From Pseudomonadota bacterium (GTDB lineage: Bacteria > Bdellovibrionota > FAC87 > UBA2466), in assembly GCA_043718025.1 (NCBI GenBank), contig JAYSWN010000172.1, positions 29,630-93,629 on the forward strand: a DNA stretch of 64,000 nucleotides. Reading direction: 5' to 3'. The notes under the pieces are model-generated. The model worked only from the letters and a program-made list of their open reading frames with translations. It made no database searches and had not been told where the DNA came from. Positions 4,611-48,388 of this stretch are shown here, one piece after another. Within the stretch, counting starts at the first letter, position 1; each line of letters begins with the position of its first letter. The translations under genes were made by a program, and so were the position numbers.

Positions 4611-6167
4611 TTAATTAAGTTTGCCGACCATAAAGTCTAAACCAGTGAATTGCCCGCGATCCGCTTCGCCGGTGAAGTAGTATGAACTTCCATCCCAGAG
4701 TGACGCCCGTCCCGAAGCGGGTTTAACAACACCCGAAACAGTGTTGTCGAATCGCATCACGCCGGCGGTACCGAAAACGGAATCTACGGCGCCGTCGGAG
4801 TTAAATCGGACCAAGAGTTTTTGGTTAATGTTAACGCCCACTACCTTCGTCTCTCCTAAGGCAAGAATCTTGGAGCCCTGCAACGCCAGGGAATGAATAC
4901 GACCGTCGGTAGGCAACTCGAGACGTTTTTTACCATCGAGATCAAATGACGTGTCCAGAGCGCCTGACTCTGGCAGCAGCCGAAGCAGCGCCAAATCTGA
5001 CTTGGTCGCGCCCATCGCCACCCCGCCTACTAAAATTTTTCCGTCCGATTGAATGGCAATAGCGAGCCCCTCGTCATTCTTGCTCATTCCCATATCCAAA
5101 TTCGGTGGATTAAAGTTGGTATCGAGCACCCCGTCGGCACTTAAACGGATGACAAAAATGTTGGTGTGAGTCGCCCCCGTCAACTTTGACGTTCCCACGA
5201 TCAAGATTCGTCCCGTTGAATCTAAGGCCATGGCGCGCGGAGTGGCGTCACTGGCGCTCAATTCCGCCTCAATCACGGTGAACCCGGCCAGAGTCGCCTG
5301 TCGGCCCGAGGCGCCCGGTGCAAAGCTATAGTCTTGGGACCAATTGGTATTGAGCCGGCGCAACGCCACTTTTGTCCCGCCCCGCACGTCGGTAGAACCG
5401 AGCAAAAGAGGACGCCTCTGGCTATCCAAAATAATTGCCGTCAGCACTTCAGCAGAATTTTTTTCGATGGGGTCGCTATAGCTTGGGTACGCCGCAAAGT
5501 TAGGGGCTTTGTAACGAGTGGAAAGTCTCTGCAAGGTACCGTCTGAAGCAAACCCTACGAGGGCAAAATCGGTATCGGCCGGGTCGGCGGTTTTAGTTAA
5601 CGTGTAGCCAGCCCAAACGCTGCCGTCCGGCAGAGTCACCGCACCGGCTACGTCAGCGTGACCCAAAGTGTCGCGAACCACAATGCGGCCATTCTGACTC
5701 GGATTTATTGCTGCTGAATAAGTGGCATCAAAGAGTCCGGTCGTCAGGTTCACCCTAACCGCCGAAATACCACGAAAGTCCCCGGCCGGGGCCGAAGGCC
5801 CGGCGGGGAAAGTCGCCAAACTGGTTCCCACAATAATTAAATTTCCACTGGTAGATTGTTTAACGATGGCGGCGGGAACATCGCTCTTTGCCACCGGAGT
5901 CGGAAAGGTGGTGGAATTAAAATCAAACTCAGCAAGCCCGTCTCCCGCGAAGGCGGTGGCTAAGGCCAACGGGCGCTCGATGGTCGAGGTGTCATCCTCT
6001 GGTCCTACCTGAACTTCCCAGGTGGGGCACACCGCTACGTTCATCATGGCCGTCGTGCCAGCCTCGGTTAGGCAGCTTCTTTCAAACTTGTTACAGCCCG
6101 CAAGAAACAGGAGCGAAAGGGTAAGCATGCTGAAAACAATTGTGGAAAGTCTCACGGTGTACTCCAA
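4611..6167 (-). CDS. Delta-60 repeat (beta-propeller-like) lipoprotein
   Basis: Lipobox LFLAGC at the N-terminus. Repeated DG(S/A)LDTSF..DGKI.. units are typical of delta-60 repeat proteins. Confidence 0.6.
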   Translation of the reverse strand: MEYTVRLSTIVFSMLTLSLLFLAGCNKFERSCLTEAGTTAMMNVAVCPTWEVQVGPEDDTSTIERPLALATAFAGDGLAEFDFNSTTFPTPVAKSDVPAAIVKQSTSGNLIIVGTSLATFPAGPSAPAGDFRGISAVRVNLTTGLFDATYSAAINPSQNGRIVVRDTLGHADVAGAVTLPDGSVWAGYTLTKTADPADTDFALVGFASDGTLQRLSTRYKAPNFAAYPSYSDPIEKNSAEVLTAIILDSQRRPLLLGSTDVRGGTKVALRRLNTNWSQDYSFAPGASGRQATLAGFTVIEAELSASDATPRAMALDSTGRILIVGTSKLTGATHTNIFVIRLSADGVLDTNFNPPNLDMGMSKNDEGLAIAIQSDGKILVGGVAMGATKSDLALLRLLPESGALDTSFDLDGKKRLELPTDGRIHSLALQGSKILALGETKVVGVNINQKLLVRFNSDGAVDSVFGTAGVMRFDNTVSGVVKPASGRASLWDGSSYYFTGEADRGQFTGLDFMVGKLN

Positions 6168-6503
6168 GGCGAAATTCTATTGCTATCGACTTACTATCCA
6201 ATGTCCGTGCCAGCTAATTGCGCCTGAGAAATTGGTGGCCAGGGGAATGGGGAATGGACAAGTTTTAGGAGTGGCCGGCTAAGCCATTGAAAGCGCTGGT
6301 TTCTTCTGTGTTCCAGCGGTATACACCGTGCTGTATTCTGACGGTAGACTAAGTAAGGCTCTGCATTTATTGATATTTTAACTGTTGTATTCTGTGGGAT
6401 GTTTTCAGAATACGCCGCCTTAAAAGGCTGCCGCCGAACCCGCGCAAAAAAAAAAGGGCCCGCCCCAGTGGGACAGACCCTTTTTGAAGATCAAAATCGG
6501 CGC

Positions 6504-11051: not shown

Positions 11052-12263
11052 ATGCCGATGACCAGCTTAGAGGCCATTCAACAGGCCCAGACCCGCATTG
11101 CCCCCTACATCGTCCAGACGCCACTCATTCTTTCCGAAGCCCTATCGCGCCACTGCCATAAAGAAGTCCTGATGAAGTGTGAAACTTTTCAGCGTACCGG
11201 TTCTTTTAAAATGCGCGGGGCAGCGCACTGCATCCTGCAAAATCTGGCCCAGGCCAAAAAGAATGGTGTGGTTGCGGCCTCGGCGGGAAACCACGCGCAA
11301 GCGGTTGCCTTGATGTGCAAGATAACCGGAATTCAAGCCACGATCGTGATGCCGGTAACAACGCCTCCGATTAAGATTCAACACACGGCGCGCTGGGGGG
11401 CCAAGATCGAGCTGGCCGGGGTTTTTTTAGATGAGGCATTTACCCACGCCTTAGCGCTATCACAAAAGCGCGGCTGCGTTTTCGTGCACGCCTTTAATGA
11501 TGCCGATATCGTGGCGGGGCAAGGCACCGTTGCTTTAGAGATGTGTGCCGATGCCAAATTCAAAGGTACCGAAGCCTTTTTGATTCCAATTGGGGGCGGT
11601 GGCTTAGCGGTGGGAATGGCCACCGCGTTAAAGGCGCTGTCACCCGGGACCAAGATTTATGGCGTCGCGCCTAAAAATGCCGGCGCCATTTTAGAAAGCT
11701 TTCGCACCGGAAAAGTGATGCCGCTTGACGTGACTTTTACGTTGGCCGACGGCACCGCAAAAAAACGGCCCGATGAAGTGATGCTGGCCGAGCTCAGAAG
11801 CTTACTGACCGACGTAATTTTGATGAGCGAAGAGTCCATCGCGCACGGCATTTCACTCATCGCCGAAGAATCTAAAATGGTGGTTGAAGGCTCGGGCGCG
11901 CTGGGCGTGGCCGCTCTGCTCGAAGACAAGATTCCAGAAAAAAAGATTGGCATCATCCTTTCGGGTGGAAACATTGACCTTCCCGCTTTTTCTTCGGTGT
12001 TGCATCGTGGCTTGGTTGAGCAAGGGCGATTGATTCGCGTTGCCATTACCATCAGCGACCGGCCCGGAGGGTTGGCGGCAGTAACCCAAATTCTCGCCGA
12101 TAAGAAAGCAAACATCTTGCAAGTCTTTCACCAGCGCTCCACCTTAAAGGCCGCCATCGGCGAAACCGAAATCGATGTCGACATGGAAACCAAAGGGCCC
12201 GAGCACACCCTGGAAATTTTGCAGGCGCTGAAAGAGCGAGGGTTTCAAGTTAGCCGTGTTTAA
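11052..12263 (+). CDS. ilvA: Threonine dehydratase (threonine ammonia-lyase), PLP-dependent with C-terminal ACT-like domain
   Basis: SFKMRGA lysine motif and SAGNHAQAVA Gly-rich PLP loop. About 400 aa with a regulatory C-terminus. Confidence 0.8.
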   Translation: MPMTSLEAIQQAQTRIAPYIVQTPLILSEALSRHCHKEVLMKCETFQRTGSFKMRGAAHCILQNLAQAKKNGVVAASAGNHAQAVALMCKITGIQATIVMPVTTPPIKIQHTARWGAKIELAGVFLDEAFTHALALSQKRGCVFVHAFNDADIVAGQGTVALEMCADAKFKGTEAFLIPIGGGGLAVGMATALKALSPGTKIYGVAPKNAGAILESFRTGKVMPLDVTFTLADGTAKKRPDEVMLAELRSLLTDVILMSEESIAHGISLIAEESKMVVEGSGALGVAALLEDKIPEKKIGIILSGGNIDLPAFSSVLHRGLVEQGRLIRVAITISDRPGGLAAVTQILADKKANILQVFHQRSTLKAAIGETEIDVDMETKGPEHTLEILQALKERGFQVSRV

Positions 12264-13008
12264 ACGTTTGGTAATTGCGACCGCTATTTTTGCTTCGGGC
12301 CCAATACGCGCCGACGATTCGCTATCGGCCAGCGCCAACTACGTTCGGCAGAAAAATGGCCCCGATCGCGTTGAACTATCGGCGATTCGCAATTGGCAAG
12401 GGCCCGAGAACTTCCGGCTGGAGGCAAAACTGCGCTTGGGCACCAACGAAAAACAGCTGCAAACTTTTGATTGGGCCGGCGAAGCCACTTACCATCTCAT
12501 CGAGTACGTGCAACCCGCTCTGCGTTTTTACAACGTTAGCCACCTCGCTAACGGCACTCACCACACCGGAATCTATCCGGCGATAAATTTCTATCTGCCG
12601 GTTTTTTCGCAGTTTAGACTGCACGCGAACTTCGGCTGGTTTTTGCGCTGGGTTTCGCTTTCGACAGCCGTACCGCTGCCCTACTGGGGGGGCACGTCTT
12701 ACTTTGAACACGACATTGGATTTGCCCTGGGCGGAGAACTCAAGTTTCTACCGGCCTGGCGTTTTTCGGCCACGGCCACCACTTACGATGACTTTGACGT
12801 GCACAACTTCAATCACCCCATTCTCAAACTGACCGTTGCTCATGATCTGGCTGACCGCAATGAGGTAGCCCTCTTCTTTCGCAATGATTTTTTATTGGGC
12901 TTTGGCCGAACGCAGTCGTGGCGGATAGGTGCCACCTACGTCTGGAAATTTAGTAGTCCAGCCGCTTTCGCTCAAAACTTAACTGGTCGCCGTCTACCGA
13001 AACCTTGA
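12256..13008 (+). CDS. Hypothetical secreted protein, possibly an outer-membrane beta-barrel
   Basis: Signal peptide MFKRLVIATAIFASGPIRA. Alternating hydrophobic pattern and terminal ..YVWKF. GTG start overlaps the ilvA stop. Confidence 0.45.
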   Translation: MFKRLVIATAIFASGPIRADDSLSASANYVRQKNGPDRVELSAIRNWQGPENFRLEAKLRLGTNEKQLQTFDWAGEATYHLIEYVQPALRFYNVSHLANGTHHTGIYPAINFYLPVFSQFRLHANFGWFLRWVSLSTAVPLPYWGGTSYFEHDIGFALGGELKFLPAWRFSATATTYDDFDVHNFNHPILKLTVAHDLADRNEVALFFRNDFLLGFGRTQSWRIGATYVWKFSSPAAFAQNLTGRRLPKP

Positions 13009-13804
13009 CGTAAAAGTTTTCTAACACGGGCTCCATACGTCGACCGCCGCCACCACCGGCCACGAGATAGCTCACCCCATCAATATTCTTCTGCACATAG
13101 CTGTGATAGTGCGCCGCCAACCAGGCCGATACATTCCGAGTGGTCGCCAATTTCATCAGGGCCTGAGCCTCTTGTGCGTCAGAGAAACGCAGATAGCTGC
13201 GCACTCCGGCAACGATGGGGGAGTAATGGCTGAGTAGAAAAATATTTGTCTCTGGGCGCCCACCCAATTGCTGATTCAGCCATTCGGTCTGCTCGCTGCC
13301 TAAAGTGGCGTCGGCGGTATCAAGCGCAACAAACCGCGAGTTGCCTACGGTGAAGGCGTAGTGGCTCGGCCCGACTTTGGCTTTAAAGAACTCCCAACCG
13401 TCGGCAAAGATATCGTGGTTACCGAGAATCGAAAAAACCTTTCCGGCCAAGGGCGACGCAAGAATTGCCGCGTGGTAAGCATTCACCTGCTCAGCGGTGC
13501 CCTGATCGGCCAAATCGCCAAGCATGATCGCAAAGGCATCGCCGTCAGCCGCCGACAGCGCCAGCATCTTTTCGAGCCAGGTCGTGGCCCCTAGGTGCAG
13601 ATCGCCTACGGTGGAAAAGCTGAACTTGTTGGGATTGGTAAGCACAGGCGGAGTGACGACCAGCGCGAGCTTCTCGCTTTCAGCAAAACGGGTTTCGGGA
13701 AGAGTTCGGCTCACGCAACCTGGCCACAAGAGCGCGCCCAAAAGCGCTGACGAAATAATAGACACCCGAAAAAATAAAATCATGGTTACCCCTTGAAACT
13801 GCAC
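12950..13804 (-). CDS. Calcineurin-like metallophosphoesterase, secreted or lipoprotein
   Basis: GDLHLG..LGDLADQG..GNHD..HYH motifs. N-terminal signal peptide. The start may be at the internal MILFF (13783). Confidence 0.7.
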   Translation of the reverse strand: MQFQGVTMILFFRVSIISSALLGALLWPGCVSRTLPETRFAESEKLALVVTPPVLTNPNKFSFSTVGDLHLGATTWLEKMLALSAADGDAFAIMLGDLADQGTAEQVNAYHAAILASPLAGKVFSILGNHDIFADGWEFFKAKVGPSHYAFTVGNSRFVALDTADATLGSEQTEWLNQQLGGRPETNIFLLSHYSPIVAGVRSYLRFSDAQEAQALMKLATTRNVSAWLAAHYHSYVQKNIDGVSYLVAGGGGGRRMEPVLENFYVKVSVDGDQLSFERKRLDY

Positions 13805-14021
13805 CTATTTTCACTCAAAGCCCGGCGATTTCAAGCAAGTGTGTAAGAAGTAGGCAGCTTGCCCCCTAAGATTTCAACGGTTTACAAAAAGGTGTCAATA
13901 AACTGGAAATTGTTTGTCCGAGAGTTAGGCCACGAAACAGGTGGCGATTTGTTACGCACTGACAAGAATTAAAACTTAGAAAACAATGACTTACAAAGTA
14001 TCCTTGAAGTGACCAAGAAGC

Positions 14022-14039
14022 TGGCACAACCCTCGCTTA
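14022..14039 (+). promoter_or_regulatory. Candidate sigma-54 (-24/-12) promoter facing the glycan cluster
   Basis: TGGCAC-N7-GC (cTGGCACaaccctcGCtt) with the correct GG/GC spacing. No EBP site identified. Confidence 0.3.
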
Positions 14040-14236
14040 TATAGAAATCATGCGGGCCAATAAGAGAAGTGCGGCGACAAGCCCAAGCCGGCACTTCCGT
14101 CTCCAGGTAGTAGGTCTGATGAACTTCCCAGCGGCTCCCGCTGGAAAAAGTAGTCGCCTCGCCTGAAGGTTTTACCGGAACGGTGAGTGCAACCGCCCGG
14201 TCGAAACAGAAAATTGAACTCTTCGAATTCTAAGGT

Positions 14237-14275
14237 GGGGCCTTCCGCAATCCAAACGGAAGGCTCCATTTTTGG
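14237..14275 (+). terminator. Intrinsic terminator-like hairpin inside the 580 nt intergenic leader
   Basis: GGGGCCTTCCG-caatccaaa-CGGAAGGCTCC followed by aTTTTTg. Lies about 190 nt downstream of the sigma-54-like element and about 110 nt upstream of the GT gene. Confidence 0.35.
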
Positions 14276-14382
14276 GCCTCTTCAAAAACCCTTCTCCCCC
14301 TTTAAAGAAACATCGCAAAAAAAAGAATCGCTTTAACCCCCCGCGGCTTTCCTCTTTCAATCCCTACGCTATCGTTTGCAAA

Positions 14383-15597
14383 ATGAAAAAAGACGCCGTT
14401 GTTGCTTACCTAGTAGGTGAATACCGAAAAACCACCCACACTTTCATTCATCGTGAAGTGCGTGAGCTGCGCCGGCAGGGGGTTAAGCTTCATACCTTCA
14501 CCATTCGCGACCGCTGTGATTTTCCGGATCCACTGTACCTGTCCGACGAGCCCCCGACCCGCCAGGTGCTGACCTACAACCCAATCAAAATACTTGCGGC
14601 GCAATTTTTTTGGATTCAGCGTTCGCCGGCAGCCTACCTCCAAGCGATGAAGGCCGCGTGGACTCTACGCGCCCCGGGCGCAAAGTCTTTACTCTACGCT
14701 GGGTTCTATTTTTTAGAGGCGACCGTATTTGCGCGGAGCGCCCTTGAATTGGGAGTAAGTCACTTCCACAATCATTTCGGTGATTCTAGCGGCAACGTGG
14801 TTTTCATAGCTTCACGACTGGCAAAGATTCCGTTCAGCATCACCTTTCACGGCCCAGATATTTTTAACGAAGCCAAGAAATGGCATCTGGGGCTGAAGCA
14901 AAAATTTGCAAAGTTCACCGTCGGCACCAGTTCTTACGCCAAATCGCAGGTGATGCTTTTTTCCGATGAGCTCGAACAGGACAATATGCACGTGATTCGA
15001 GCCGCCATCGACCTAGCTGATTTCATTAATGAGCCTCCCCACGTTCCCACGACCAAGTGGAAGCTACTCTTCATCGCCCGCACCGCTCCGGCCAAGGGGT
15101 GGCGCGTGCTATTAGAAGCGGCAGAGAAGCTAGAGAGAGCGGGAGTGGTAGATTTTTCATTGAGCATTGTCGCGGCCGGACCGCCCCATCACCTAAAAAA
15201 GTTAAAAGAATCAATCGCACGCCGCGGCCTGTCCTCGGTGCATGTTTCAGGCGCTTGCCCGCCGGCGACCATTACCGCGCTCATCGGATCTCACGATATT
15301 TTGCTCTCCACCAGTTTTGCCGAAGGGCTACCGGTAGTATTGATCGAGGCCATGGCAATGGGAAAAGCGGTTGTCGCCACGGCCGTGGGTGGAGTTGGGG
15401 ATTTGGTTCGCCACGACGAAAATGGCATTTTAGTTCCCCCCGCCCGGCCCGATCTCGTGGCTCAGGCGATTACCGAACTTACCCAAGACCCCGAACGGTA
15501 CACGCGAATCTGCAAGGCCGCTCGCCTGGAAATTCAACTTGGCTACCAAGCCGAAAGCGAATTTGGCAGACTCAAGGCACTTTTCAATGATCACTAG
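14383..15597 (+). CDS. Glycosyltransferase family 1 (GT4-type)
   Basis: C-terminal EGLPVVLIEAMAMGKAVVAT..GGVGDLV GT1 motif. ATG 14383 (MKKDAVVAYLVGEY..). The ORF-track start at 14272 is over-extended. Confidence 0.8.
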   Translation: MKKDAVVAYLVGEYRKTTHTFIHREVRELRRQGVKLHTFTIRDRCDFPDPLYLSDEPPTRQVLTYNPIKILAAQFFWIQRSPAAYLQAMKAAWTLRAPGAKSLLYAGFYFLEATVFARSALELGVSHFHNHFGDSSGNVVFIASRLAKIPFSITFHGPDIFNEAKKWHLGLKQKFAKFTVGTSSYAKSQVMLFSDELEQDNMHVIRAAIDLADFINEPPHVPTTKWKLLFIARTAPAKGWRVLLEAAEKLERAGVVDFSLSIVAAGPPHHLKKLKESIARRGLSSVHVSGACPPATITALIGSHDILLSTSFAEGLPVVLIEAMAMGKAVVATAVGGVGDLVRHDENGILVPPARPDLVAQAITELTQDPERYTRICKAARLEIQLGYQAESEFGRLKALFNDH

Positions 15598-17260
15598 CCA
15601 ACGCCGTTACCCCTTTCTGATTTGGCTCGCTGTTTTCTCACTCGCCCCGGCACTCTTTCTCACGCTGTGGTCGCAGCGATCACGCCGCCTATTCAATTTG
15701 CGCGAACCCCAGCTCGACATGTTTCTGTTTCACGACACCAAGGCCGTCTACGTAAATGTATTTCTGATTACAGCAGGTTTTATTCTGTTCGCTTGGCCGC
15801 AGCTTTTTGGGTGGCCAGCAAAAACGTTAAATGCCAATTGGGAAAAGTATCGCGCGCCCGCGATTAAATATTTTCCCGTGTTTTTTTTCATTCTTGCGGC
15901 GGCGTTGGCTTTGCCGGTTTACCAGAATACCGCGTTGACCCTCGATGAGTACGCCGCCTTCTTTCAAGCCGAAGCGTTTAGTCACGGAAGTCTTGGCGGA
16001 AAAATGCCAATTGGCCTCATACCGTGGGCGGTCCCACGCTGGCTAGGTAGCTATTTTTTTACGGTCTCGCCCGAGGGGTTGATCACCGAGACCTATCTGC
16101 CGGGTTACGCCTTGTTGCTGGCCCCTTTTGTAAAATTGAATCTGGGTTGGCTGTTTAACCCGACCTTGGGCGCACTCATTTTGGCGACCTTAGTTTCCTT
16201 GGCGCGAAGACTCTTTGACGATGAAACCGCTTTATGGGTGGCGGTGCTGGCGATATCTTCGCCGGTTTTTTGGGTTAACTCGGTCTCTTTTTATTCTCTA
16301 AACTGCCGTCTGCTTTTCAACTTGTTGTTTCTCTATTTTCTTTGGCCCTCAACCGCAATGACCGGGCGGCGCGCGCTGCTGGCTGGTCTGGCTGGCGGCA
16401 TGGCGGCATTTACCCACAACCCCTATCCCCACGTCGTATTTGCCCTGCCGTGGCTCTTATATTTCTTTTACCGGAAAGAGAGCCGCCGTTTTATCTGGGC
16501 CCTGTGCTTAGGTTACCTACCCTTTGTTCTATTGACGTGCAGCTGGGGGCTGCTCCTGTACCGATCTCAGACGGTATCTACCGGCCCCACCGGCGGCGGC
16601 TTTACCTACGCTTGGGATATGGCCAGCGCCTTGGTACCGCCTCCGTGGAGCGAGCGGACCTTTGTGATGTGGAGCACTTCACTCTGCAAGTTGTTGCTAT
16701 GGAGCACTCCCGGTATTTGGTTTTTCTTTCTTTCAACCAAGTCGATTAAAAGTCCGTTTTTGCGCCTTAGCCTTATCTCCTTTGTGCTCACTTTTTTTGC
16801 GTACGGTTTAGCCAAAAACAGAGTGGCGCAGGGTTTTGGCTGGGGACACCGTTATAGCTACGCGGCGATGGGCGCGGTGTGGTTGGCGGCGGCTTACTGG
16901 CTAGCGCGCCGGGAACAGCGCAGTGCCTTCCGCATCCCCGCCATGGGGATGGCGCTAGGCGGACTGCTGGTGATGACGCCCCTACAACTGATCCAAACGC
17001 ATCGCTTCATTGCCAGCCAAAACAAGAAGTTGCCGTGTCTGGCCAAAGACGTTCGGCAGGTTTGTTTAGTGGTGGCAAAGAGCGACTATTATTTAGGTGA
17101 CCGTTTACAAAACGATCCGTTTTTAAAAAGGCCTCGACTCCTTTTCCACAGTGCCGGGAAAGAGAGCGACGACAAAATGATGCAGGAGTTCTTTCCCAAC
17201 TACGAGTTGAAAAAGAGGGACGACCGGCACGCGATTTGGTTGCCGAAAGAAAAACCGTAA
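15587..17260 (+). CDS. Polytopic membrane protein, GT-C fold glycosyltransferase-like (ArnT/PMT-type)
   Basis: At least 10 predicted TM segments. LTLDEYAAF DE motif in the first extracytoplasmic loop. ATGA overlap with the upstream GT. Confidence 0.5.
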   Translation: MITSQRRYPFLIWLAVFSLAPALFLTLWSQRSRRLFNLREPQLDMFLFHDTKAVYVNVFLITAGFILFAWPQLFGWPAKTLNANWEKYRAPAIKYFPVFFFILAAALALPVYQNTALTLDEYAAFFQAEAFSHGSLGGKMPIGLIPWAVPRWLGSYFFTVSPEGLITETYLPGYALLLAPFVKLNLGWLFNPTLGALILATLVSLARRLFDDETALWVAVLAISSPVFWVNSVSFYSLNCRLLFNLLFLYFLWPSTAMTGRRALLAGLAGGMAAFTHNPYPHVVFALPWLLYFFYRKESRRFIWALCLGYLPFVLLTCSWGLLLYRSQTVSTGPTGGGFTYAWDMASALVPPPWSERTFVMWSTSLCKLLLWSTPGIWFFFLSTKSIKSPFLRLSLISFVLTFFAYGLAKNRVAQGFGWGHRYSYAAMGAVWLAAAYWLARREQRSAFRIPAMGMALGGLLVMTPLQLIQTHRFIASQNKKLPCLAKDVRQVCLVVAKSDYYLGDRLQNDPFLKRPRLLFHSAGKESDDKMMQEFFPNYELKKRDDRHAIWLPKEKP

Positions 17261-17319
17261 CCGGGTGATGCAGAAAGGCTAGACCAAGAGCCTGCGCCCC
17301 CCTAAAATCAGGCCAACGA

Positions 17320-17994
17320 ATGCGCTACGAAAAAAGAATATTTGATCTCTTTTTCGCATCGGCACTGCTCTTAGCGGCTTTGCCCCTATTCTTGGTAATC
17401 GCGGCCCTGATCTACAGCACCAAGACTGGCCCCATCTTCTTTCGCCGACGGCGCTACGGCTTAAACGGCGCCACATTTGAGATTCTAAAATTTCGCACCC
17501 TATCTTCCTCAAAGGGTAAACCGGTAGCAATGGCCGACTTTCTGCGTCGCACTTGCTTAGATGAACTGCCGCAGCTTATCAATGTGCTTAAAGGTGAAAT
17601 GAGTTTGGTAGGCCCGCGTCCGCTCGACGTCGAAGAGAGTGACGCGTTAGCGCTGATCTATCCGCGCCATCACCGTCGCCACACCGTACCTCCGGGACTG
17701 ACGGGCAGCGGCCAGATTGAGGGAATGCGCGGCCTTTTGGACAGGACCCAAATCGAAAGACGGCTTCGCCTCGACATTGCCTATACCGAACGAAATTCGT
17801 TTCGCGGCGACCTTATGATTTTATGGTTAACTCCCTTTTCGATTTTGTGCGGGCCGAAAGCAGCTCCAAAACAAACGCCGCTAAAAACCCCCCATTCGCC
17901 AGGTAGCGCGGACCAAGCCGCTTTGGCTCTTGCCACATTCGATAGGCCCATTCCAAACCCAAGTTGCCTAACCAGCGCGGAGATCGGCGCTTAA
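17320..17994 (+). CDS. Bacterial sugar transferase (polyprenyl-phosphate hexose-1-phosphate transferase, WbaP/WcaJ C-terminal-domain type)
   Basis: IFDLFFASALLLAALPLF..GPIFFRRRRYG..FEILKFRTL..DELPQLINVLKGEMSLVGPRP. The C-terminal tail after DLMILWLTPFSIL is low-complexity and overlaps the convergent WecG gene. Confidence 0.8.
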   Translation: MRYEKRIFDLFFASALLLAALPLFLVIAALIYSTKTGPIFFRRRRYGLNGATFEILKFRTLSSSKGKPVAMADFLRRTCLDELPQLINVLKGEMSLVGPRPLDVEESDALALIYPRHHRRHTVPPGLTGSGQIEGMRGLLDRTQIERRLRLDIAYTERNSFRGDLMILWLTPFSILCGPKAAPKQTPLKTPHSPGSADQAALALATFDRPIPNPSCLTSAEIGA

Positions 17995-18592
17995 TTCCCG
18001 AGATGAGATCTAACGCATTTCCCACCTGAAAGATCACTCCCGCTTCAATTTTGGCCAAATGCTCATGAATCCAAAGTTCACCCTGCGGTTGCCCAAGCGC
18101 CAGAATCAAATAATTTGGTTTTGCTTTTGCGATCGCATTCAATACCCGGTTCGTTTCGCGATCGGTGATCGGTTTTCCAACGTGTTCGGTGCCCGCCACG
18201 ATGAAGTCAGGGTGTTTTTCCTTCAACCGCCGAATCGCCAGTTGGGTCGCCTCCTCCCGTCGCCCCACGAAAAAGAAGGTATGTCCTTGCAGGGCGCCAA
18301 CGCCGCACAGCTTTTCTAACAACTCAGAACCCGGGATCCGTTCCAAGAGCTTATGCTCGGCCCAGCGTGAGGCCAAAACGATTGGCATGCCGTCGGCTAC
18401 GGTAAGCGCGCTCTGCCGATTACAATCCTGGAGCCGAGGGTCGCGACCAGCAAGCTCGGCAAAGTTAAGATTGCCCGAGACAATCACCGACTTTTCCATT
18501 CTTCGCGCCAGGTTGGATGCGTGCGCCACCGCTTCGCTCATGCCCACGGTGTCGATCCAGATTCCCAGTAATTTCTGGCGATGAAACGTCAT
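17813..18592 (-). CDS. WecB/TagA/CpsF family glycosyltransferase
   Basis: LGIWIDTV..VSGNLNFA..DGMPIVLASR..KPNYLILALGQPQGELWIHEH. Start chosen at the internal ATG 18592. The ORF track extends to 18667. Confidence 0.75.
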   Translation of the reverse strand: MTFHRQKLLGIWIDTVGMSEAVAHASNLARRMEKSVIVSGNLNFAELAGRDPRLQDCNRQSALTVADGMPIVLASRWAEHKLLERIPGSELLEKLCGVGALQGHTFFFVGRREEATQLAIRRLKEKHPDFIVAGTEHVGKPITDRETNRVLNAIAKAKPNYLILALGQPQGELWIHEHLAKIEAGVIFQVGNALDLISGIKRRSPRWLGNLGLEWAYRMWQEPKRLGPRYLANGGFLAAFVLELLSARTKSKRELTIKS

Positions 18593-18687
18593 GATTCGGT
18601 AATTAAAGCGCGAACCGCACCAATGCGCAAACCGCAGGAAGTGCCGAGTCATGAGCTTTGGTTTCAATCCTGTTACCGTTTAGCGAA

Positions 18688-19881
18688 ATGCTGAACGCGG
18701 CGCTGCTCATTCTATGTTCCCTATTCCTGCTGGTGTTGCTTGCGTATCTCCTCTTGGCGCTCACTGAATTGGCCCTGAGCTTCTGGCCCAAGCCTGGTAA
18801 AGAAAATTATTCCACCGGAGTTTACGACGCCGTCCTATTTCTACCGGCCCACAACGAAGCCACCACGATTGCTGCGTCGCTCACTAGACTGCTTCGGCAA
18901 CTGCCGCCATCGTTTACGCTGGTGGTACTGGCCGACAACTGTATAGATGACACGGCCGCGGTGGCCCGAAATTTTGCCGGCGTTACCGTTTGGGAGAGGA
19001 ATTGCCAAGACCGTAAAGGAAAAGGGCATGCCTTGCGCCACGGTTTTCGCCGTTTGCGCCAAGAAGGCATTCAGGCCGAAGCGGTTCTGGTCTTCGATGT
19101 CGATACCTACGCCAGCGCCGCAACCCTGCTAGTCCTTGCCGCCGCCGCAGTGGAAACTCAGCGACCAGTTCAAGCCGCGCACCTCTATGCGGAGGCAAGC
19201 CAACGGGAGAATGCTCTTTCCACGATGGGAAGTTGGTGGAGCACGTTTGTGCGCGAACAAGGCCGTAGCCGTCTGTCACTTCCGCATTTTATGCACGGCA
19301 CGGGCATGGCGATCCCCTTTTCTCTGCTCCCCTTTTTCGACGAACTCGATGGGTCGCCCGTTGAAGACAAACGGCTCACGGCAAATTTCGTGATCTCCCA
19401 ACATCGACCTCTCTTTCTACCGAATTACCCAGTCGCATTTTATGAAAATGAGAGTGAGGGAGACTGGCGGCGGCGACGTCAGCGCTGGGAATTTGGTCAC
19501 CTGGCCGAAATAAAAACCACCACTCCCCGGATTTTACTGGCGGCCGTCGAACAGAATCGATTTTCTCTTTTTTTCTTTGCCCTGGATTTCTCATTGCCGC
19601 CGCTTTCGCTGCTGTTTGCCTTGGGTTCCGGCCTTGCCGCAATCGGTTTTCTAATCAAATTTCCCGCGCCCTTTCTGCTGCTTAGCGGGATATGGAGCGG
19701 CTCGACCGTTCTGTTTATTGTACTGGGGGGCACTCGCGTTTGGTTTTCGCCGTGGCGAGCGCAATTTGGTCGTTGCGTTCACGACTTGCCGCGCTGGTGG
19801 GTTGGTAAGGCGAAAAACTACTCTCTTTTATTGACCCGGCGTTGGCAAAAACGATCAGTGCCGGGTTTGTGGCTAAAATAG
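18688..19881 (+). CDS. Membrane-anchored glycosyltransferase family 2
   Basis: LFLPAHNEATTIAASLTRLL..LVVLADNCIDDTA (DxD-type) with C-terminal TM segments. Confidence 0.7.
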   Translation: MLNAALLILCSLFLLVLLAYLLLALTELALSFWPKPGKENYSTGVYDAVLFLPAHNEATTIAASLTRLLRQLPPSFTLVVLADNCIDDTAAVARNFAGVTVWERNCQDRKGKGHALRHGFRRLRQEGIQAEAVLVFDVDTYASAATLLVLAAAAVETQRPVQAAHLYAEASQRENALSTMGSWWSTFVREQGRSRLSLPHFMHGTGMAIPFSLLPFFDELDGSPVEDKRLTANFVISQHRPLFLPNYPVAFYENESEGDWRRRRQRWEFGHLAEIKTTTPRILLAAVEQNRFSLFFFALDFSLPPLSLLFALGSGLAAIGFLIKFPAPFLLLSGIWSGSTVLFIVLGGTRVWFSPWRAQFGRCVHDLPRWWVGKAKNYSLLLTRRWQKRSVPGLWLK

Positions 19882-19911
19882 TTTGGTCCACAGCGGTTTT
19901 CTTAACGCCGA

Positions 19912-21636
19912 ATGATTGATAGAGTGCCGAGAAGCTCAATGAATAAATCTGCGTCCCTCATTTTTATTTCGGTGCTGGTACTTCAGTCTATTCTGATCGC
20001 CCTTTTCCACTTCTATTTTCATGAACCTTGGCGCGATGAAGTGCAGCATTTTTTAATTGCTACCTCGACCAAAGGATTAGGCGGCCTATTTTCGGCGCTT
20101 CGCTACGAGGGTCACCCCCCATTTTTGCATCTGCTCTATCGCGGGCTAGATCATTTTGTTGAGCCTCGCGTGGCGTTGGCCCTGGTCTCAGGCATCGGTT
20201 ACTTCACGCTCTCCACCTCCGTTTTTGCGCTCCTGAGCACGGCTTCGACTGCGCCTTGGCTGGTGGTGTTGGCTTCATGGCTTCTCAGCCTATCTTACGT
20301 GTCGGTTTACGAATTCGGCGTGATTGCGCGCGGCTACGGCCTGGGCATGGGAATGGCAATCGCTGGACTGGTCTGTTTTATCCGCCTGCTCAAGTCGCCG
20401 GGTGACGCGAATTCGGGGGGCCGGCGATGCACTTTCGCCCTTGGTCTGGCCTTTTTCTGCGCCGCCATTTTAACTTCCGTACATTCCGCAATTTTAAGTG
20501 CCTGCTTTTTGGTGCCCTTCTTTTTGAACTGGTTCATCGAAAAAAAATGGCGCGCCCTAGTGCTCACCCTGGCAGCCCTGGCGCTACCGTTGGTGATTCT
20601 TTTTTCCCTGCTCAGGGATCACACCGACCGCATGCCTTCGCCCATGGCCGCCACGCCCCAGGATTTGGCCAGCAAACTTCTCTGGGTCGGTGAGCAAGTT
20701 CAAATGGGGCGGTACGCCGCCGAAATGATGAGTCGTCTTTACCAGCTTTTTTACGAATTCAGTTTTCCCACTCACTGGTGGAATTTTGCCTACTCCGAGG
20801 TGCCGCGTTGGTTTGGCCACAAAATGTTTTGGACGCTGCTCAGCCTCACTCTGATCAGCTTTTTTTTCCAGAAAGGAAAAGGGCGGCACCGCCTTCTCAT
20901 TGTCATCTCGTTGATTTTCGGAGCCCTGGTTTTCGATTTCTTTTTTACTTTCTTGTACCCAGCCTCCTTCCGACACCGGGTTTTTTTTACCTTTCCCGTA
21001 TTTTTACTGATCGCGCGCCATTGGCTTGAGTATTGGAGCCCGAATCTCCGCCAGGAACTGAAAGCCCAGCTCCCTCGGGTGCGACTGCGCAGCGGCACGA
21101 CGCTCTTTGCCTTCCTTCTTTTGACCGGCCTTTCCCTATCGCAAATTGCCGCCAGCGCGCTGGCCCTGGGAGCAGACTATTTTTGGTATTTTTCGCAAAC
21201 GGCAATGGCCCCCGCTTTCATTCCCAATTCGCCGAACGTAATGGTGGCGGTCGATTCTGATTTCACCGCTACGGCGATCGCGCTGTGGAACCCAAAGGTA
21301 AAACTCTATTCCCGAACGGGCGGCGGCCGCCCCTTCACTTACGCCAAATGGGATCGAGCCCGTGGCGAGAGAAAATTGAGGCGTAAAGTTCTGTTGGGCC
21401 GACTTTGCGATGAAGTAAATGAGCATCCGGAACGATCCCTTTACTACTTAAGTGTCCACCCATCGCAAGACGCTGAATACCCGTTCAAAGAAATTTTTGC
21501 CTCGTCGCCGTTGGTACCCACCGCGGTCCTGGATGAGCGCTTTCGCTTCTATTCAGTTGATTGCAAAACGCAGACACGCGAGGAACTCCAACACCATGCC
21601 GGCGGCTTTTATCAAAGGGGCACCGCCGCAAACTAA
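19912..21636 (+). CDS. Second polytopic GT-C-like membrane glycosyltransferase
   Basis: Many TM helices. WRDEVQH DE motif in the first loop. Same architecture as 15587..17260. Confidence 0.45.
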   Translation: MIDRVPRSSMNKSASLIFISVLVLQSILIALFHFYFHEPWRDEVQHFLIATSTKGLGGLFSALRYEGHPPFLHLLYRGLDHFVEPRVALALVSGIGYFTLSTSVFALLSTASTAPWLVVLASWLLSLSYVSVYEFGVIARGYGLGMGMAIAGLVCFIRLLKSPGDANSGGRRCTFALGLAFFCAAILTSVHSAILSACFLVPFFLNWFIEKKWRALVLTLAALALPLVILFSLLRDHTDRMPSPMAATPQDLASKLLWVGEQVQMGRYAAEMMSRLYQLFYEFSFPTHWWNFAYSEVPRWFGHKMFWTLLSLTLISFFFQKGKGRHRLLIVISLIFGALVFDFFFTFLYPASFRHRVFFTFPVFLLIARHWLEYWSPNLRQELKAQLPRVRLRSGTTLFAFLLLTGLSLSQIAASALALGADYFWYFSQTAMAPAFIPNSPNVMVAVDSDFTATAIALWNPKVKLYSRTGGGRPFTYAKWDRARGERKLRRKVLLGRLCDEVNEHPERSLYYLSVHPSQDAEYPFKEIFASSPLVPTAVLDERFRFYSVDCKTQTREELQHHAGGFYQRGTAAN

Positions 21637-21642
21637 ATTCGG

Positions 21643-22263
21643 TTGCCGGTCGAAACCCGGCCCCCTAGGGTGAAGCCGATGAGGAGCGCCGAACAGATTC
21701 GATTTTTAGAGGGGGAATACAGTCGGCTTTGGCAAGACTATGGACTGGACGCAATTTCAGCGCCACCTGCCGTAGACCAGGCCGTGCCTTCACCCCTTAT
21801 TGAACCCCGGCCCACTCCCGAAGGCCCCTCCCCCTTTCTGGTGTGCGTTGAAACGCCACCAGAACCGAGCGTGGGCTTTGTGGTGCAGCTTTCTTTGGAA
21901 TACCCTCGGTTAAAGAAAGACGAAGAGGCGCTGTGGGAGCGAATGCTTCAAGCCCTCTCCCTAAATCGGGATGCCGTCGCACTCATTAAAATTCTTGCCC
22001 TACCTGGCCAACCACAGACTGCCGCGACGAATCATTTCTTATGGGCGTTGCCCCCGTCGCTGCGCTGGATCATATTTTTCGGCAACCTACCTTTTCAAAC
22101 CGTGACCCATGGGGCGGGAACGCAGGGGATCTGGGCGCCGCTGCCTGACTCGGCGGCCGGTCAATGGCTGCTTACTCACGACCTGGCGAAACTAACGCGT
22201 GACCCCAATTCGAAAAAAGAGACATGGAATCATTTGAAGGATCTCCCGCAGCGTCTAAAATAG
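21643..22263 (+). CDS. Hypothetical protein
   Basis: ORF with a TTG start, or ATG at 21679. Pro-rich N-terminus. No recognisable domain. Confidence 0.4.
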   Translation: MPVETRPPRVKPMRSAEQIRFLEGEYSRLWQDYGLDAISAPPAVDQAVPSPLIEPRPTPEGPSPFLVCVETPPEPSVGFVVQLSLEYPRLKKDEEALWERMLQALSLNRDAVALIKILALPGQPQTAATNHFLWALPPSLRWIIFFGNLPFQTVTHGAGTQGIWAPLPDSAAGQWLLTHDLAKLTRDPNSKKETWNHLKDLPQRLK

Positions 22264-22273
22264 AGGCGCCGCT

Positions 22274-23560
22274 ATGAAAAAAATAATCGCCTTCAGCTTC
22301 GTCGTTTGCTCCCAACTCTTAATGGCCGGCCCGATTTCGGTGGCCCGAGTCAACTCCAGCATCAATCCTGGGACGGCCGATTACCTGATCACCGCCATCG
22401 AAAAGGCGGAGGCAAAGGGCTCGCCCTTTCTCTTGATCGAAATCGATACCCCCGGAGGGCTGCTCTCAAGCACCCGTACGATCGTGCAAAAAATTTTGAA
22501 CAGTAAAATTCCTGTGGTGGTTTACGTCACCCCAAAAGGCGGCCACGCCACTTCTGCCGGTGCCATCATTGCTCTGGCTGCGGAGGTAACGGCCATGTCG
22601 CCCGGCACCCACATCGGGGCGGCTCATCCGGTTACCGGATCGGGAGAAAAATTAGATGACTCCGTACGAACTAAAATGGTGAACGACACGGTCGCTTTTA
22701 CCGAAAGTTTGGCGCGCGCCACCGGACGCAATCCTGATTGGGCCGCAAAGATCGTAAGAGAAAGCCTGGCGATTACGGCTGAGGATGCCCTTAAAAGCGC
22801 GGCCATTGAGATCATCGCAGATAGCCGCGGCGACTTAATTTCGAAGCTCGTGCAGTGGAAATGGAAGAAAACGAATGCCGCTCAAGTTGAAATGAAAAAA
22901 GGGACGGCCGAGATTGAAATCATTGCCCCAAGCTTGAAACAAGATTTGGTCTCTTTTTTTTCCGATCCCACTCTCGCCTACTTAGTTTTGTCGTTGGCCG
23001 GGCTCTGTTTGTGGATCGAACTCACTCATCCGGGCCTAATCTTACCTGGGGTGATTGCGGTTTTCTGTGGGCTGTTAAGTCTAATTTCATTTCAGCTTCT
23101 ACCCATCAGCTACGGGGCCGTGGGGCTAATGGTGCTGGGCATGGCGATGCTTTTCGCTGAACTTTTTCTACCCACGTTCGGCTTGCTTGGGATAGCGGGG
23201 GTAGCTTGCTTTATTTTTGGTTCGCTGTTTCTGGTCGACACCCAGACGGGCGCACTCGGGGTGCCACTATCGCTAGTGCTGACCACCGCTACCTGTCTTA
23301 GCGCAGCGGCGCTGGGCTTAGGCATGCTGGTATGGAGATCCCGGGGCGTAAAAAAATTGTCGGCCGACGACGCCATGGTTGGCGAAATTGGCGAGGTGGC
23401 TGACCGGGTCGATCACCAGCACGGCATGGTATTGGTCCGCGGCGAGCTCTGGAAAGCGCGCGGCTTTGGCGGAGCCGCGTTCGAAAAAGGGGCCCTTGTG
23501 GAAGTGGTTGCCATAAAAGATTTAACCATTACGGTGCGATCTCAAACGGTGACCTCGTAA
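22274..23560 (+). CDS. NfeD-like membrane-bound serine protease (ClpP class), stomatin operon partner
   Basis: N-terminal ClpP-like region GGLLSSTRTIVQKI..GGHATSAGAIIALAA, then TM segments and a C-terminal OB-like region. Immediately upstream of the SPFH gene. Confidence 0.8.
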   Translation: MKKIIAFSFVVCSQLLMAGPISVARVNSSINPGTADYLITAIEKAEAKGSPFLLIEIDTPGGLLSSTRTIVQKILNSKIPVVVYVTPKGGHATSAGAIIALAAEVTAMSPGTHIGAAHPVTGSGEKLDDSVRTKMVNDTVAFTESLARATGRNPDWAAKIVRESLAITAEDALKSAAIEIIADSRGDLISKLVQWKWKKTNAAQVEMKKGTAEIEIIAPSLKQDLVSFFSDPTLAYLVLSLAGLCLWIELTHPGLILPGVIAVFCGLLSLISFQLLPISYGAVGLMVLGMAMLFAELFLPTFGLLGIAGVACFIFGSLFLVDTQTGALGVPLSLVLTTATCLSAAALGLGMLVWRSRGVKKLSADDAMVGEIGEVADRVDHQHGMVLVRGELWKARGFGGAAFEKGALVEVVAIKDLTITVRSQTVTS

Positions 23561-23579
23561 TTTGAAAATGGAGCCTTAA

Positions 23580-24347
23580 ATGATTGCGCCCTATTTTATT
23601 GTCGGTTTTTTCATCCTCTTCTTTTTAAGCTCAGCCCTTAAGGTTCTGCAGGAGTACGAAAAAGGGGTGGTCTTTCGACTGGGCCGCTTAATCGGCGCCA
23701 AAGGGCCGGGCCTTATTATATTGATTCCGGGAATTGACCGCATGGTGAAGGTGTCGATGCGCATCGTAACCGCCGACATTCCCCCGCAGGACGTGGTGAC
23801 CAAAGACAACGTGTCGATCAAGGTAAACGCCGTAGTCCTATTTCGCGTGGTCGATCCAATTCGCGCCATCAATAACGTAGAGAGCTATTTGGACAGTACC
23901 TATCAGTATGCGCAAACCACTCTGCGTTCCGTACTCGGTAGCGTTGAGCTCGATGACGTGCTGGCCGAAAGGGTTGAACTCAACAAACGCATTCAAGAGA
24001 TTCTCGATCTACACACCGAGCCCTGGGGCATCAAAGTATCCGGGGTTGAGATCAAGCAAGTCGATTTACCCAAAGAAATGCAACGCGCAATGGCGGGGCA
24101 GGCCGAGGCCGAGCGTCAACGGCGGGCCAAAGTGATTAATGCCGAGGGCGAAGCCCAAGCCGCAAGCAAGCTGGTGGAAGCGGCAAAGAAAATTGAAGAC
24201 TACCCGGCGGCGCTTCAGCTGCGCTATTTGCAGACGCTTCAGGAGATTGCGACGGAGAATAACTCCACGGTAATTTTCCCGCTGCCGATAGACCTATTAA
24301 AAGCTTTCATGGAAAAGATTCAAAACAAACCCACGCGTGAGGTTTAA
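23580..24347 (+). CDS. SPFH/band 7 stomatin-like protein
   Basis: N-terminal TM then [47 protein letters not shown]. Confidence 0.85.
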
Positions 24348-48312: not shown

Positions 48313-48388
48313 GTCCCCATCGTCTAGAGGCCTAGGACGACGCCCTTTCACGGCGTAGACACGAGTTCGAATCTCGTTGGGGACGCCA
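48313..48388 (+). tRNA. tRNA-Glu (anticodon UUC)
   Basis: 76 nt cloverleaf. Acceptor GTCCCCA/TGGGGAC. Anticodon loop CTTTCAC. T-loop GTTCGAATC. CCA end encoded. Near-identical in form to canonical bacterial tRNA-Glu. Confidence 0.9.

Follow-up and report, generated by a model that had tools for sequence, protein, structure and literature searches.

What does the long spacer between a metallophosphoesterase gene and a divergently oriented cluster of glycan genes encode in an uncultured member of the Bdellovibrionota, and is it dedicated to the glycan genes that it precedes? The spacer lies in a stretch of 64,000 nucleotides (nt) of contig JAYSWN010000172.1 (hereafter the window), in which the ATG of the metallophosphoesterase (position 13783, minus strand) and that of a GT4 glycosyltransferase (position 14383, plus strand) leave 599 nt between them (13784–14382). 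The GC content of this spacer is 0.45–0.50, as compared to 0.52–0.59 in its flanks, in agreement with the local AT-richness described in an initial annotation of the sequence. That annotation regarded the whole region as a leader of about 580 nt ahead of the glycan cluster. The length was close to that of the spacer, but only some 335 nt of it (about 14048–14382) lie downstream of the predicted transcription start, and the rest belongs to the control region of the divergent metallophosphoesterase gene. As developed below, the spacer is best read as holding a stand-alone gene, dependent on sigma-54 and an activator, for a structured non-coding RNA of about 226 nt that faces away from the metallophosphoesterase gene, a reading to which we assign a probability of roughly 0.6.

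The putative promoter consists of TGGCAC (14022–14027) followed by five bases and TCGCT (14033–14037). Its GG-N10-GC core, GGCACAACCCTCGC at 14023–14036, has the canonical −24/−12 spacing, which is the same in 7/7 of the distinct loci compared here. The motif and spacing given by the initial annotation were therefore correct as TGGCAC-N5-TCGC, with the site ending at 14037 and the annotated end at 14039 being a few bases generous. The extended sigma-54 consensus is TGGCAC-N5-TTGCW, from which the site departs at one of 11 specified positions, having TCGC instead of TTGC; that C is kept in all homologues. Considered in the single sequence, the motif is not significant: the strict form TGGCAC-N5-TNGC occurs once in the window, where 0.44 occurrences are expected, and at least once in 39 of 100 shuffled windows, and the looser TGGCAC-N5-TTGCW with up to two mismatches is found 30 times against 32 expected, i.e. 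at chance level. By proportion from the counts for the strict form, the chance of a strict match falling within the 599-nt spacer is about 0.004.

The promoter rises above chance because both the motif and the RNA structure downstream of it are conserved in related loci. These were reached through metallophosphoesterase homologues (P0001–P0101) encoded on related metagenome-assembled contigs and comprised, besides the window, five full-length copies (L081, L082, L083, L115 and L118) and one distinct fragment holding the promoter only (L119); L116, L117 and L119 are short fragments. The initial annotation had tied the promoter to conservation of its motif alongside the flanking genes, and GGCA(C/T)-N5-TCGC turned out to be invariant in the seven distinct loci, whereas the flanking metallophosphoesterase is only 48–64% identical and the DNA around the motif is unconserved. 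The sequence is TGGCACAACCCTCGC in the window, L118 and L119, TGGCACGAACCTCGC in L115 (identical in L116 and L117), CGGCATAAACCTCGC in L081, TGGCACGAGCTTCGC in L082 and TGGCACGGGTCTCGC in L083. In the alignment from the metallophosphoesterase start to the 5′ end of the RNA, GGCA and TCGC make up the sole run of invariant columns, and in the surrounding 90 or so columns the majority fraction is about 0.5–0.6, near the expectation for seven unrelated sequences. The motif is always on the RNA strand, about 240 nt from the metallophosphoesterase ATG in six loci and 295 nt from it in L083.

Ahead of the predicted transcription start, two blocks (13838–13857 and 13891–13947) are better conserved than their surroundings, with a majority fraction of 0.70–0.76 versus 0.49–0.6. 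They lie about 75–185 nt upstream of the −24 element, a suitable distance when compared with the 80–200 bp of activator sites, and are candidates for an activator binding site, for the promoter of the divergent gene, or for both. A small hairpin, GCCACGAAACAGGTGGC, which the terminator scanner listed as terminator-like, lies within these blocks. A sigma-70-like site at 13959–13987 was considered as the promoter of the RNA and rejected, as it precedes the sigma-54 element and falls where the alignment is poorly conserved.

Downstream of the promoter, the sequence folds into a structure that is both stable and conserved. The segment 14048–14282 had a folding z-score of −4.1, and 0 of 200 shuffled sequences folded as well. 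When each of the six homologues, the window included, was folded alone, the same architecture was obtained, with helices named P0 to P6 in Table 1. Covariation was counted on a core alignment of the six full-length copies (A4), in which 92.5% of the cells of 45 consensus pairs form a standard pair, versus 40–52% when the partners were slid by 1–3 columns; 0 of 500 shuffles reached the observed value. Pairs changed on both sides numbered 17 of 45 (3–6 after sliding), and 28 individual cells were changed on both sides (3–7 after sliding), neither figure being reached in any of 500 shuffles. None of the 500 shuffles reached the covariation score either, and five of them reached the count of further pair types. 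RNAalifold on a longer alignment gave compensatory changes in 16 of 47 pairs.

This support is spread over the molecule, since every helix counted carries at least three two-sided changes. The three helices of the nested domain (P1, P2 and P3) are 87–93% paired, with 9 of 22 pairs changed on both sides; P4 is 96.6% paired, with three such pairs, and the terminal P6 92.3% paired, with five. The remaining two hairpins are variable. The outer stem of P0 changes yet stays complementary, being UUCU/GGAA in L118 and AGCG/CGCU in L115 by reading of the alignment; P0 is missing in L081 and is replaced in L082 and L083 by a hairpin of another sequence. P5 was recognized in individual folds, aligns poorly and was left out of the counted structure. 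By contrast to these variable parts, some loop sequences are kept: TCCC is invariant in the P3 loop, a UCC(C/A) motif is conserved in the P6 loop, and the P5 loop of L081, L082 and L083 is of the CUCCCC type. Each RNA has in this way two to three apical loops of the UCCC type, in P3 and P6 and, in three copies, also in P5.

The GC-rich hairpin followed by a U-tract that the initial annotation placed at the end of the transcript was also recovered. The P6 stem pairs T14236–G14247 with C14257–A14268 around a 9-nt loop, has a free energy of −22.5 kcal/mol and is directly followed by T14269–T14273; the consensus terminator scanner missed it because its loop limit was 8. Across all copies the free energy of the terminal hairpin is between −20 and −30 kcal/mol. 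The U-tract is present in the window, L115 and L118 (3/6) and weak in L081 (UUUCA), and L083 has an extra small hairpin with U5 after P6. Combined, the conservation of the motif and the compensatory pair changes support the view, already expressed in the initial annotation, of a small RNA (sRNA) of about 200 nt that ends at this terminator and whose transcription would depend on RpoN (sigma-54).

The RNA is non-coding and single-copy. Stop-free frames are not conserved on either strand across the homologues; a 73-aa open reading frame (ORF) on the minus strand (14048–14269) and a 19-codon ORF on the plus strand starting at 14051 were considered as small proteins and rejected, as neither frame nor length is conserved. 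No second copy or paralogue was detected by blastn, nor with a covariance model of the core (R1), which returned the six known copies only from 395 kb of DNA. A pattern of the RNA lacking the promoter gave 29 matches over the metagenome contigs, all of which look like chance matches having no other resemblance to the RNA; this pattern was built from four copies and is too strict, as it misses L115 and L118. With Rfam 15, whose curated families include known sigma-54-dependent sRNAs, no family reached its gathering score for the RNA in the window, and no sub-threshold match recurred in the window and four homologues. The c-di-GMP-II riboswitch (RF01786), tried as a candidate, scored 18 bits versus a threshold of 53.5 (E = 0.75), with 50 model positions deleted; the match, at 14168–14207, covers only a P1 stem and a GUGCAACCG stretch, lies in the variable P4 tip and was not recovered in the homologues. 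The RNA is a new family, found in a small clade of uncultured Bdellovibrionota, and the type of element that it represents is already known.

Table 1. Positions of the RNA gene, its predicted signals and structural parts, and the adjoining genes in the 64-kb window
Feature	Position	Strand	Description
Metallophosphoesterase gene	12950–13783	−	277 aa, signal-peptide-like N-terminus; Pfam Metallophos
Conserved blocks upstream of the predicted RNA start	13838–13947		13838–13857, AGTGTGTAAGAAGTAGGCAG; 13891–13947, GGTG..AAA..TGGAAA..TGTCCGAGAG..CACGAAACAGGTGGCGA
Putative sigma-54-type promoter	14022–14037	+	TGGCACaacccTCGCt; −24 GG at 14023–14024, −12 GC at 14035–14036; then AT-rich TTATATAGAAA
Predicted non-coding RNA	14048–14273	+	About 226 nt; 5′ end predicted from the −12 GC plus 12 nt, 3′ end from the U-tract
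P0, variable 5′ hairpin	14066–14097	+	GAAGUGCGGCG...GCCGGCACUUC; minimum-free-energy fold
P1-P2-P3, nested domain	14104–14165	+	P1 CAGG/CCUG; apical P3 at 14128–14144 with conserved C-rich loop GGCUCCCGC
Conserved GAAGG linker, then P4	14166–14207	+	P4 hairpin GGUUUUACCGG...CCGGUCGAAAC, variable tip
P5, variable small hairpin	14208–14231	+	Individual folds
P6, terminator hairpin	14236–14273	+	12 bp, loop CAAUCCAAA, then UUUUU
Glycan cluster	14383–21636	+	GT4, unknown 573-aa protein, Bac_transf, WecG (minus strand), GT2, Wzy-like; Pfam
UDG-like gene, NfeD, Band7	21643–24347		Directly after the glycan cluster in the window

Gene context then bore on whether the RNA serves the glycan cluster. In all loci that carry it, the RNA is upstream of the metallophosphoesterase gene and faces away from it. 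Where the metallophosphoesterase is 62–64% identical to that of the window (L081, L082, L115, L118 and the fragments L116, L117 and L119), the arrangement is GT4, a spacer of about 550–610 nt, and metallophosphoesterase. In L083 (48% identity) a spacer of 664 nt with promoter and RNA precedes a UDG-family gene, NfeD and Band7, and there is no glycan cluster. The first gene downstream of the RNA is thus GT4 in five loci and the UDG-family gene in L083, an observation that goes against the proposal in the initial annotation of a leader or attenuator controlling polysaccharide genes. In the window, the genes found after the cluster encode a 206-aa protein sharing an N-terminal motif with the UDG-family protein of L083, an NfeD protein 53% identical to that of L083, and Band7. 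Since the genes directly after the RNA in L083 sit beyond the cluster in the window, the conserved unit is metallophosphoesterase, RNA and UDG/NfeD/Band7, to the exclusion of the glycan cluster. In L084, L085 and L120, the UDG-type gene is 10–30 nt from the metallophosphoesterase gene and there is no RNA. The 7.3-kb glycan cluster breaks the order metallophosphoesterase, UDG-like, NfeD, Band7, TENA seen in L083, L084, L085 and L120. It was either inserted in the clade of the window or lost in L083, and it looks like a clade-specific insertion; in either case the RNA persists without the glycan cluster. The tempting reading of the element as a dedicated switch for the adjacent glycan genes is in this way corrected.

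Named homologues of the metallophosphoesterase and of GroEL belong to Bdellovibrionota, Oligoflexia, Bdellovibrionia or Bdellovibrionales. The GT4 protein had no close relative among 185,579 GTDB species-representative genomes, which returned only distant glycosyltransferases with 24–44% identity over segments, none of them from a syntenic locus. Exact-protein look-ups of the window proteins and of P0001 gave no recorded match.

The following course of events is proposed. Transcription would proceed from the sigma-54 promoter and start near 14048. Given what is established about sigma-54, such transcription would depend on an ATP-dependent enhancer-binding activator at an upstream site, and the gene would be silent until this activator is switched on. 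The transcript is predicted to fold, from its 5′ end, into the variable P0, the nested domain P1-P2-P3, the conserved P4, the variable P5 and the stable terminal hairpin P6, which together with its U-tract would end most transcripts at 14273 in this genome. Two to three apical loops would then expose the conserved C-rich sequences of the UCCC type. These loops suggest that the RNA most likely acts in trans, the loops pairing with G-rich ribosome-binding sites on its target mRNAs in the way of other sRNAs that have C-rich loops. Any transcript extending past the terminator could feed the downstream operon.

Several observations weigh against a stand-alone, trans-acting RNA under sigma-54 control. 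The −12 element departs from the textbook TTGC, neither rpoN nor an activator gene was found among the Pfam-scanned ORFs of the 64-kb window, and no conserved inverted repeat or clear activator binding site could be defined in the upstream blocks. The full-length copies are only six, three of them mutually close and all from one clade, and they represent few independent covariation events. Pairing of the RNA with the start regions of the metallophosphoesterase gene and of the downstream gene involved sRNA regions, and reached significance levels, that differ between genomes. Regarding the sigma factor itself, cultured Bdellovibrionota encode RpoN, as exemplified by the RpoN-like bd0843 of Bdellovibrio bacteriovorus (PMC3464611) and by B. 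marinus (PMC3526173).

Three further observations count against the stand-alone gene by favouring a cis-acting leader instead: in each of the six loci the RNA is followed by a same-strand gene after about 75–110 nt, the interval from the terminator to the GT4 start gave no sigma-70-like promoter, and in L082 the P6 hairpin lacks a U-tract. According to this alternative, the sigma-54 promoter would drive the downstream operon (the glycan cluster plus UDG-like-NfeD-Band7 in the window; UDG-NfeD-Band7 in L083), and the RNA would be its 5′ leader, a riboswitch or attenuator in which the terminal hairpin acts as a conditional terminator that some ligand, protein or trans-acting factor can open. The conserved multi-helix core could be an aptamer, and the spacer after the hairpin (14274–14382) is pyrimidine-rich and G-poor. 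Such a C/T-rich, G-poor composition is typical of Rho-loading sites. However, the first gene downstream differs between loci (GT4 versus UDG), and L084, L085 and L120 have the same UDG-NfeD operon behind their short spacer of 10–30 nt in the absence of any RNA. Nor was an antiterminator apparent: the best upstream pairing of the 5′ arm of P6 was no better than in shuffled controls (a fraction of 0.17–0.83 of the shuffles being at least as good), and its place differs among L081, L082 and L083, so that attenuation as put forward in the initial annotation did not hold up. The terminator loop, moreover, has a conserved sequence that a plain expression platform does not need, and no riboswitch family in Rfam was matched. 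On balance we consider a cis-acting leader unlikely, if deserving of serious attention. A dual role, in which the terminated RNA would act in trans through its UCCC loops and read-through would set the expression of the downstream envelope or membrane operon, appears to us a doubtful proposition as well. Were it true, UDG-NfeD-Band7 would be the ancestral downstream operon and the glycan cluster that of this genome, and newly acquired surface-polysaccharide genes would have been captured under an existing activator-controlled signal.

That the RNA is a sponge, taking up an RNA-binding protein on its C-rich loops and A-rich linkers in the manner of CrcZ (Hfq/Crc) or CsrB (CsrA) instead of pairing with mRNAs, is an improbable reading. 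The two to three UCCC-type apical loops and A-rich single-stranded linkers such as GGAAAAAG and AACAGAAAAUU would fit it, as would the lack of a conserved mRNA target among the start regions of the neighbouring genes. Classical sponge RNAs have 5–20 copies of their motif, whereas only 2–3 are present here; the A-rich linkers are loosely conserved, no CsrA-type motifs with GGA in a loop were found, and no candidate protein partner is encoded beside the RNA. A sponge under sigma-54 control does have an established example in the CbrB-dependent CrcZ (PMC8871633). More improbable still is that a chance motif stands before an ordinary insulating terminator and that the conservation reflects some other DNA-binding site. 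The frequency of strict matches in shuffled windows (39%), the background level of the looser consensus and the absence of rpoN and activator genes from the window would allow for it. Against this, eight core positions are invariant although the DNA around them is unconserved, their strand and distance relative to a covarying RNA are as expected of a promoter, and the helices between motif and hairpin carry compensatory changes that are not expected of insulating DNA.

The stand-alone sRNA gene favoured here has precedents among sRNAs with sigma-54 promoters, namely Pxr in myxobacteria (PMC5568312), Qrr in Vibrio (bioRxiv 10.1101/2021.07.01.450815) and CrcZ in Pseudomonas (PMC8871633). Neither these nor GlmY/GlmZ are homologous to the RNA described here. 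Pxr, from Myxococcus and related myxobacteria, is also an intergenic non-coding RNA with an apparent sigma-54 promoter and a multi-stem-loop fold made of conserved and variable stems, and its occurrence is likewise limited to a single lineage of the former delta-proteobacteria (PMC5568312, PMC5684412). It differs in having 108 nt and three stem-loops and in adjoining nla19, a gene for a sigma-54 response regulator, whereas the present RNA has about 226 nt and five to six helices, no activator gene nearby and no detectable homology to Pxr in sequence or structure. Qrr1–5 of Vibrio and GlmY/GlmZ of Enterobacteria follow the same design, in which a short structured RNA is transcribed from a sigma-54 promoter and ends at an intrinsic terminator, and differ from the present RNA in sequence and fold. 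GlmY and GlmZ are sigma-54-dependent sRNAs that control amino-sugar synthesis for the cell envelope. This envelope role loosely recalls the glycan genes of the window, a link that is not conserved, as L083 illustrates. As for Qrr, its transcription requires both LuxO and RpoN (bioRxiv 10.1101/2021.07.01.450815).

Other known RNAs resemble the new family in particular traits. The UCCC motifs bring to mind the sRNAs of the RsaE/RoxS type of Firmicutes. These RNAs, of about 100 nt, pair with Shine-Dalgarno sequences through several UCCC motifs that are unpaired or apical, and their terminator hairpin contributes to the functional molecule; they belong to an unrelated phylum, are transcribed from promoters other than sigma-54 and show no homology to the present RNA. 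CrcZ has about 400 nt and several A-rich motifs that sequester Hfq/Crc. Together with CrcY of Pseudomonas, it resembles the RNA of the window in being sigma-54 (CbrB)-dependent, in its location just upstream of a same-strand gene and in its repeated short single-stranded motifs (PMC8871633), but the repeat found here is the C-rich UCCC, placed in hairpin loops and present in only 2–3 copies. Within the same phylum, merRNA and the attack-phase sRNAs of Bdellovibrio bacteriovorus are non-coding RNAs that are likewise lineage-restricted (PMC3627812); merRNA differs in containing a genuine riboswitch for cyclic di-GMP (c-di-GMP), and the attack-phase program is under the control of FliA (sigma-28). 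Few sRNAs have been reported in B. bacteriovorus, and they are not conserved outside the species (PMC3627812). Indeed, RNA regulators are little known in the Bdellovibrionota, a phylum that includes bacterial predators and most of whose members are uncultured. Sigma-54-dependent sRNAs being established elsewhere, the advance made here is a new RNA family and not a new principle. Sequence comparison by itself lends support to a conserved, covarying RNA with a putative sigma-54 promoter, which provides an entry point to an activator-controlled circuit in this clade.

Some additional features of the locus were recorded. No Shine-Dalgarno sequence is recognisable ahead of the GT4 start codon (TCGTTTGCAAAATG), whereas the divergent metallophosphoesterase gene has a strong one (AAGGGGTAACCATG), and the same was observed in L115 and L118. 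A block of sequence (C)GCGAC(C/T)CTCCGCG(G/T)TTTTCAC is conserved about 45–55 nt before the GT4 start, at 14335–14353 in the window and also in L115, L118 and L081. The L115 and L118 versions can pair into a hairpin of 5 bp that has a C-rich loop and UUUU after it, and the window keeps only CCGCGGCTTTC; the block may serve the cluster as a second terminator or as an operator.

Within the glycan cluster, the WecG/TagA-family gene (17813–18667, minus strand) opposes the otherwise plus-strand genes, and its 3′ end overlaps that of the Bac_transf gene (17320–17994, plus strand) by about 180 nt. The overlap has the same length in L082 (genes at 1188–1982 and 1803–2510) and amounts to about 50 nt in L081 (950–1711 and 1659–2231). 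On the other side of the spacer, a gene for a 250-aa protein without a Pfam family (12256–13008, plus strand) is located between the threonine dehydratase gene and the metallophosphoesterase gene, on which it converges with a 59-nt overlap of the 3′ ends; both the gene and a similar overlap are kept in L081, L083, L085 and L115–L120. Elsewhere in the window, a tRNA gene (48313–48385, plus strand) was the sole Rfam match at threshold. A second sigma-54-like site, TGGCACGGACATTGGA, is present at 6197–6212 on the minus strand, about 30 nt ahead of the TTG codon at which a DUF5122 beta-propeller gene (4611–6167, minus strand) starts; the −12 element of this site is GG, not GC.

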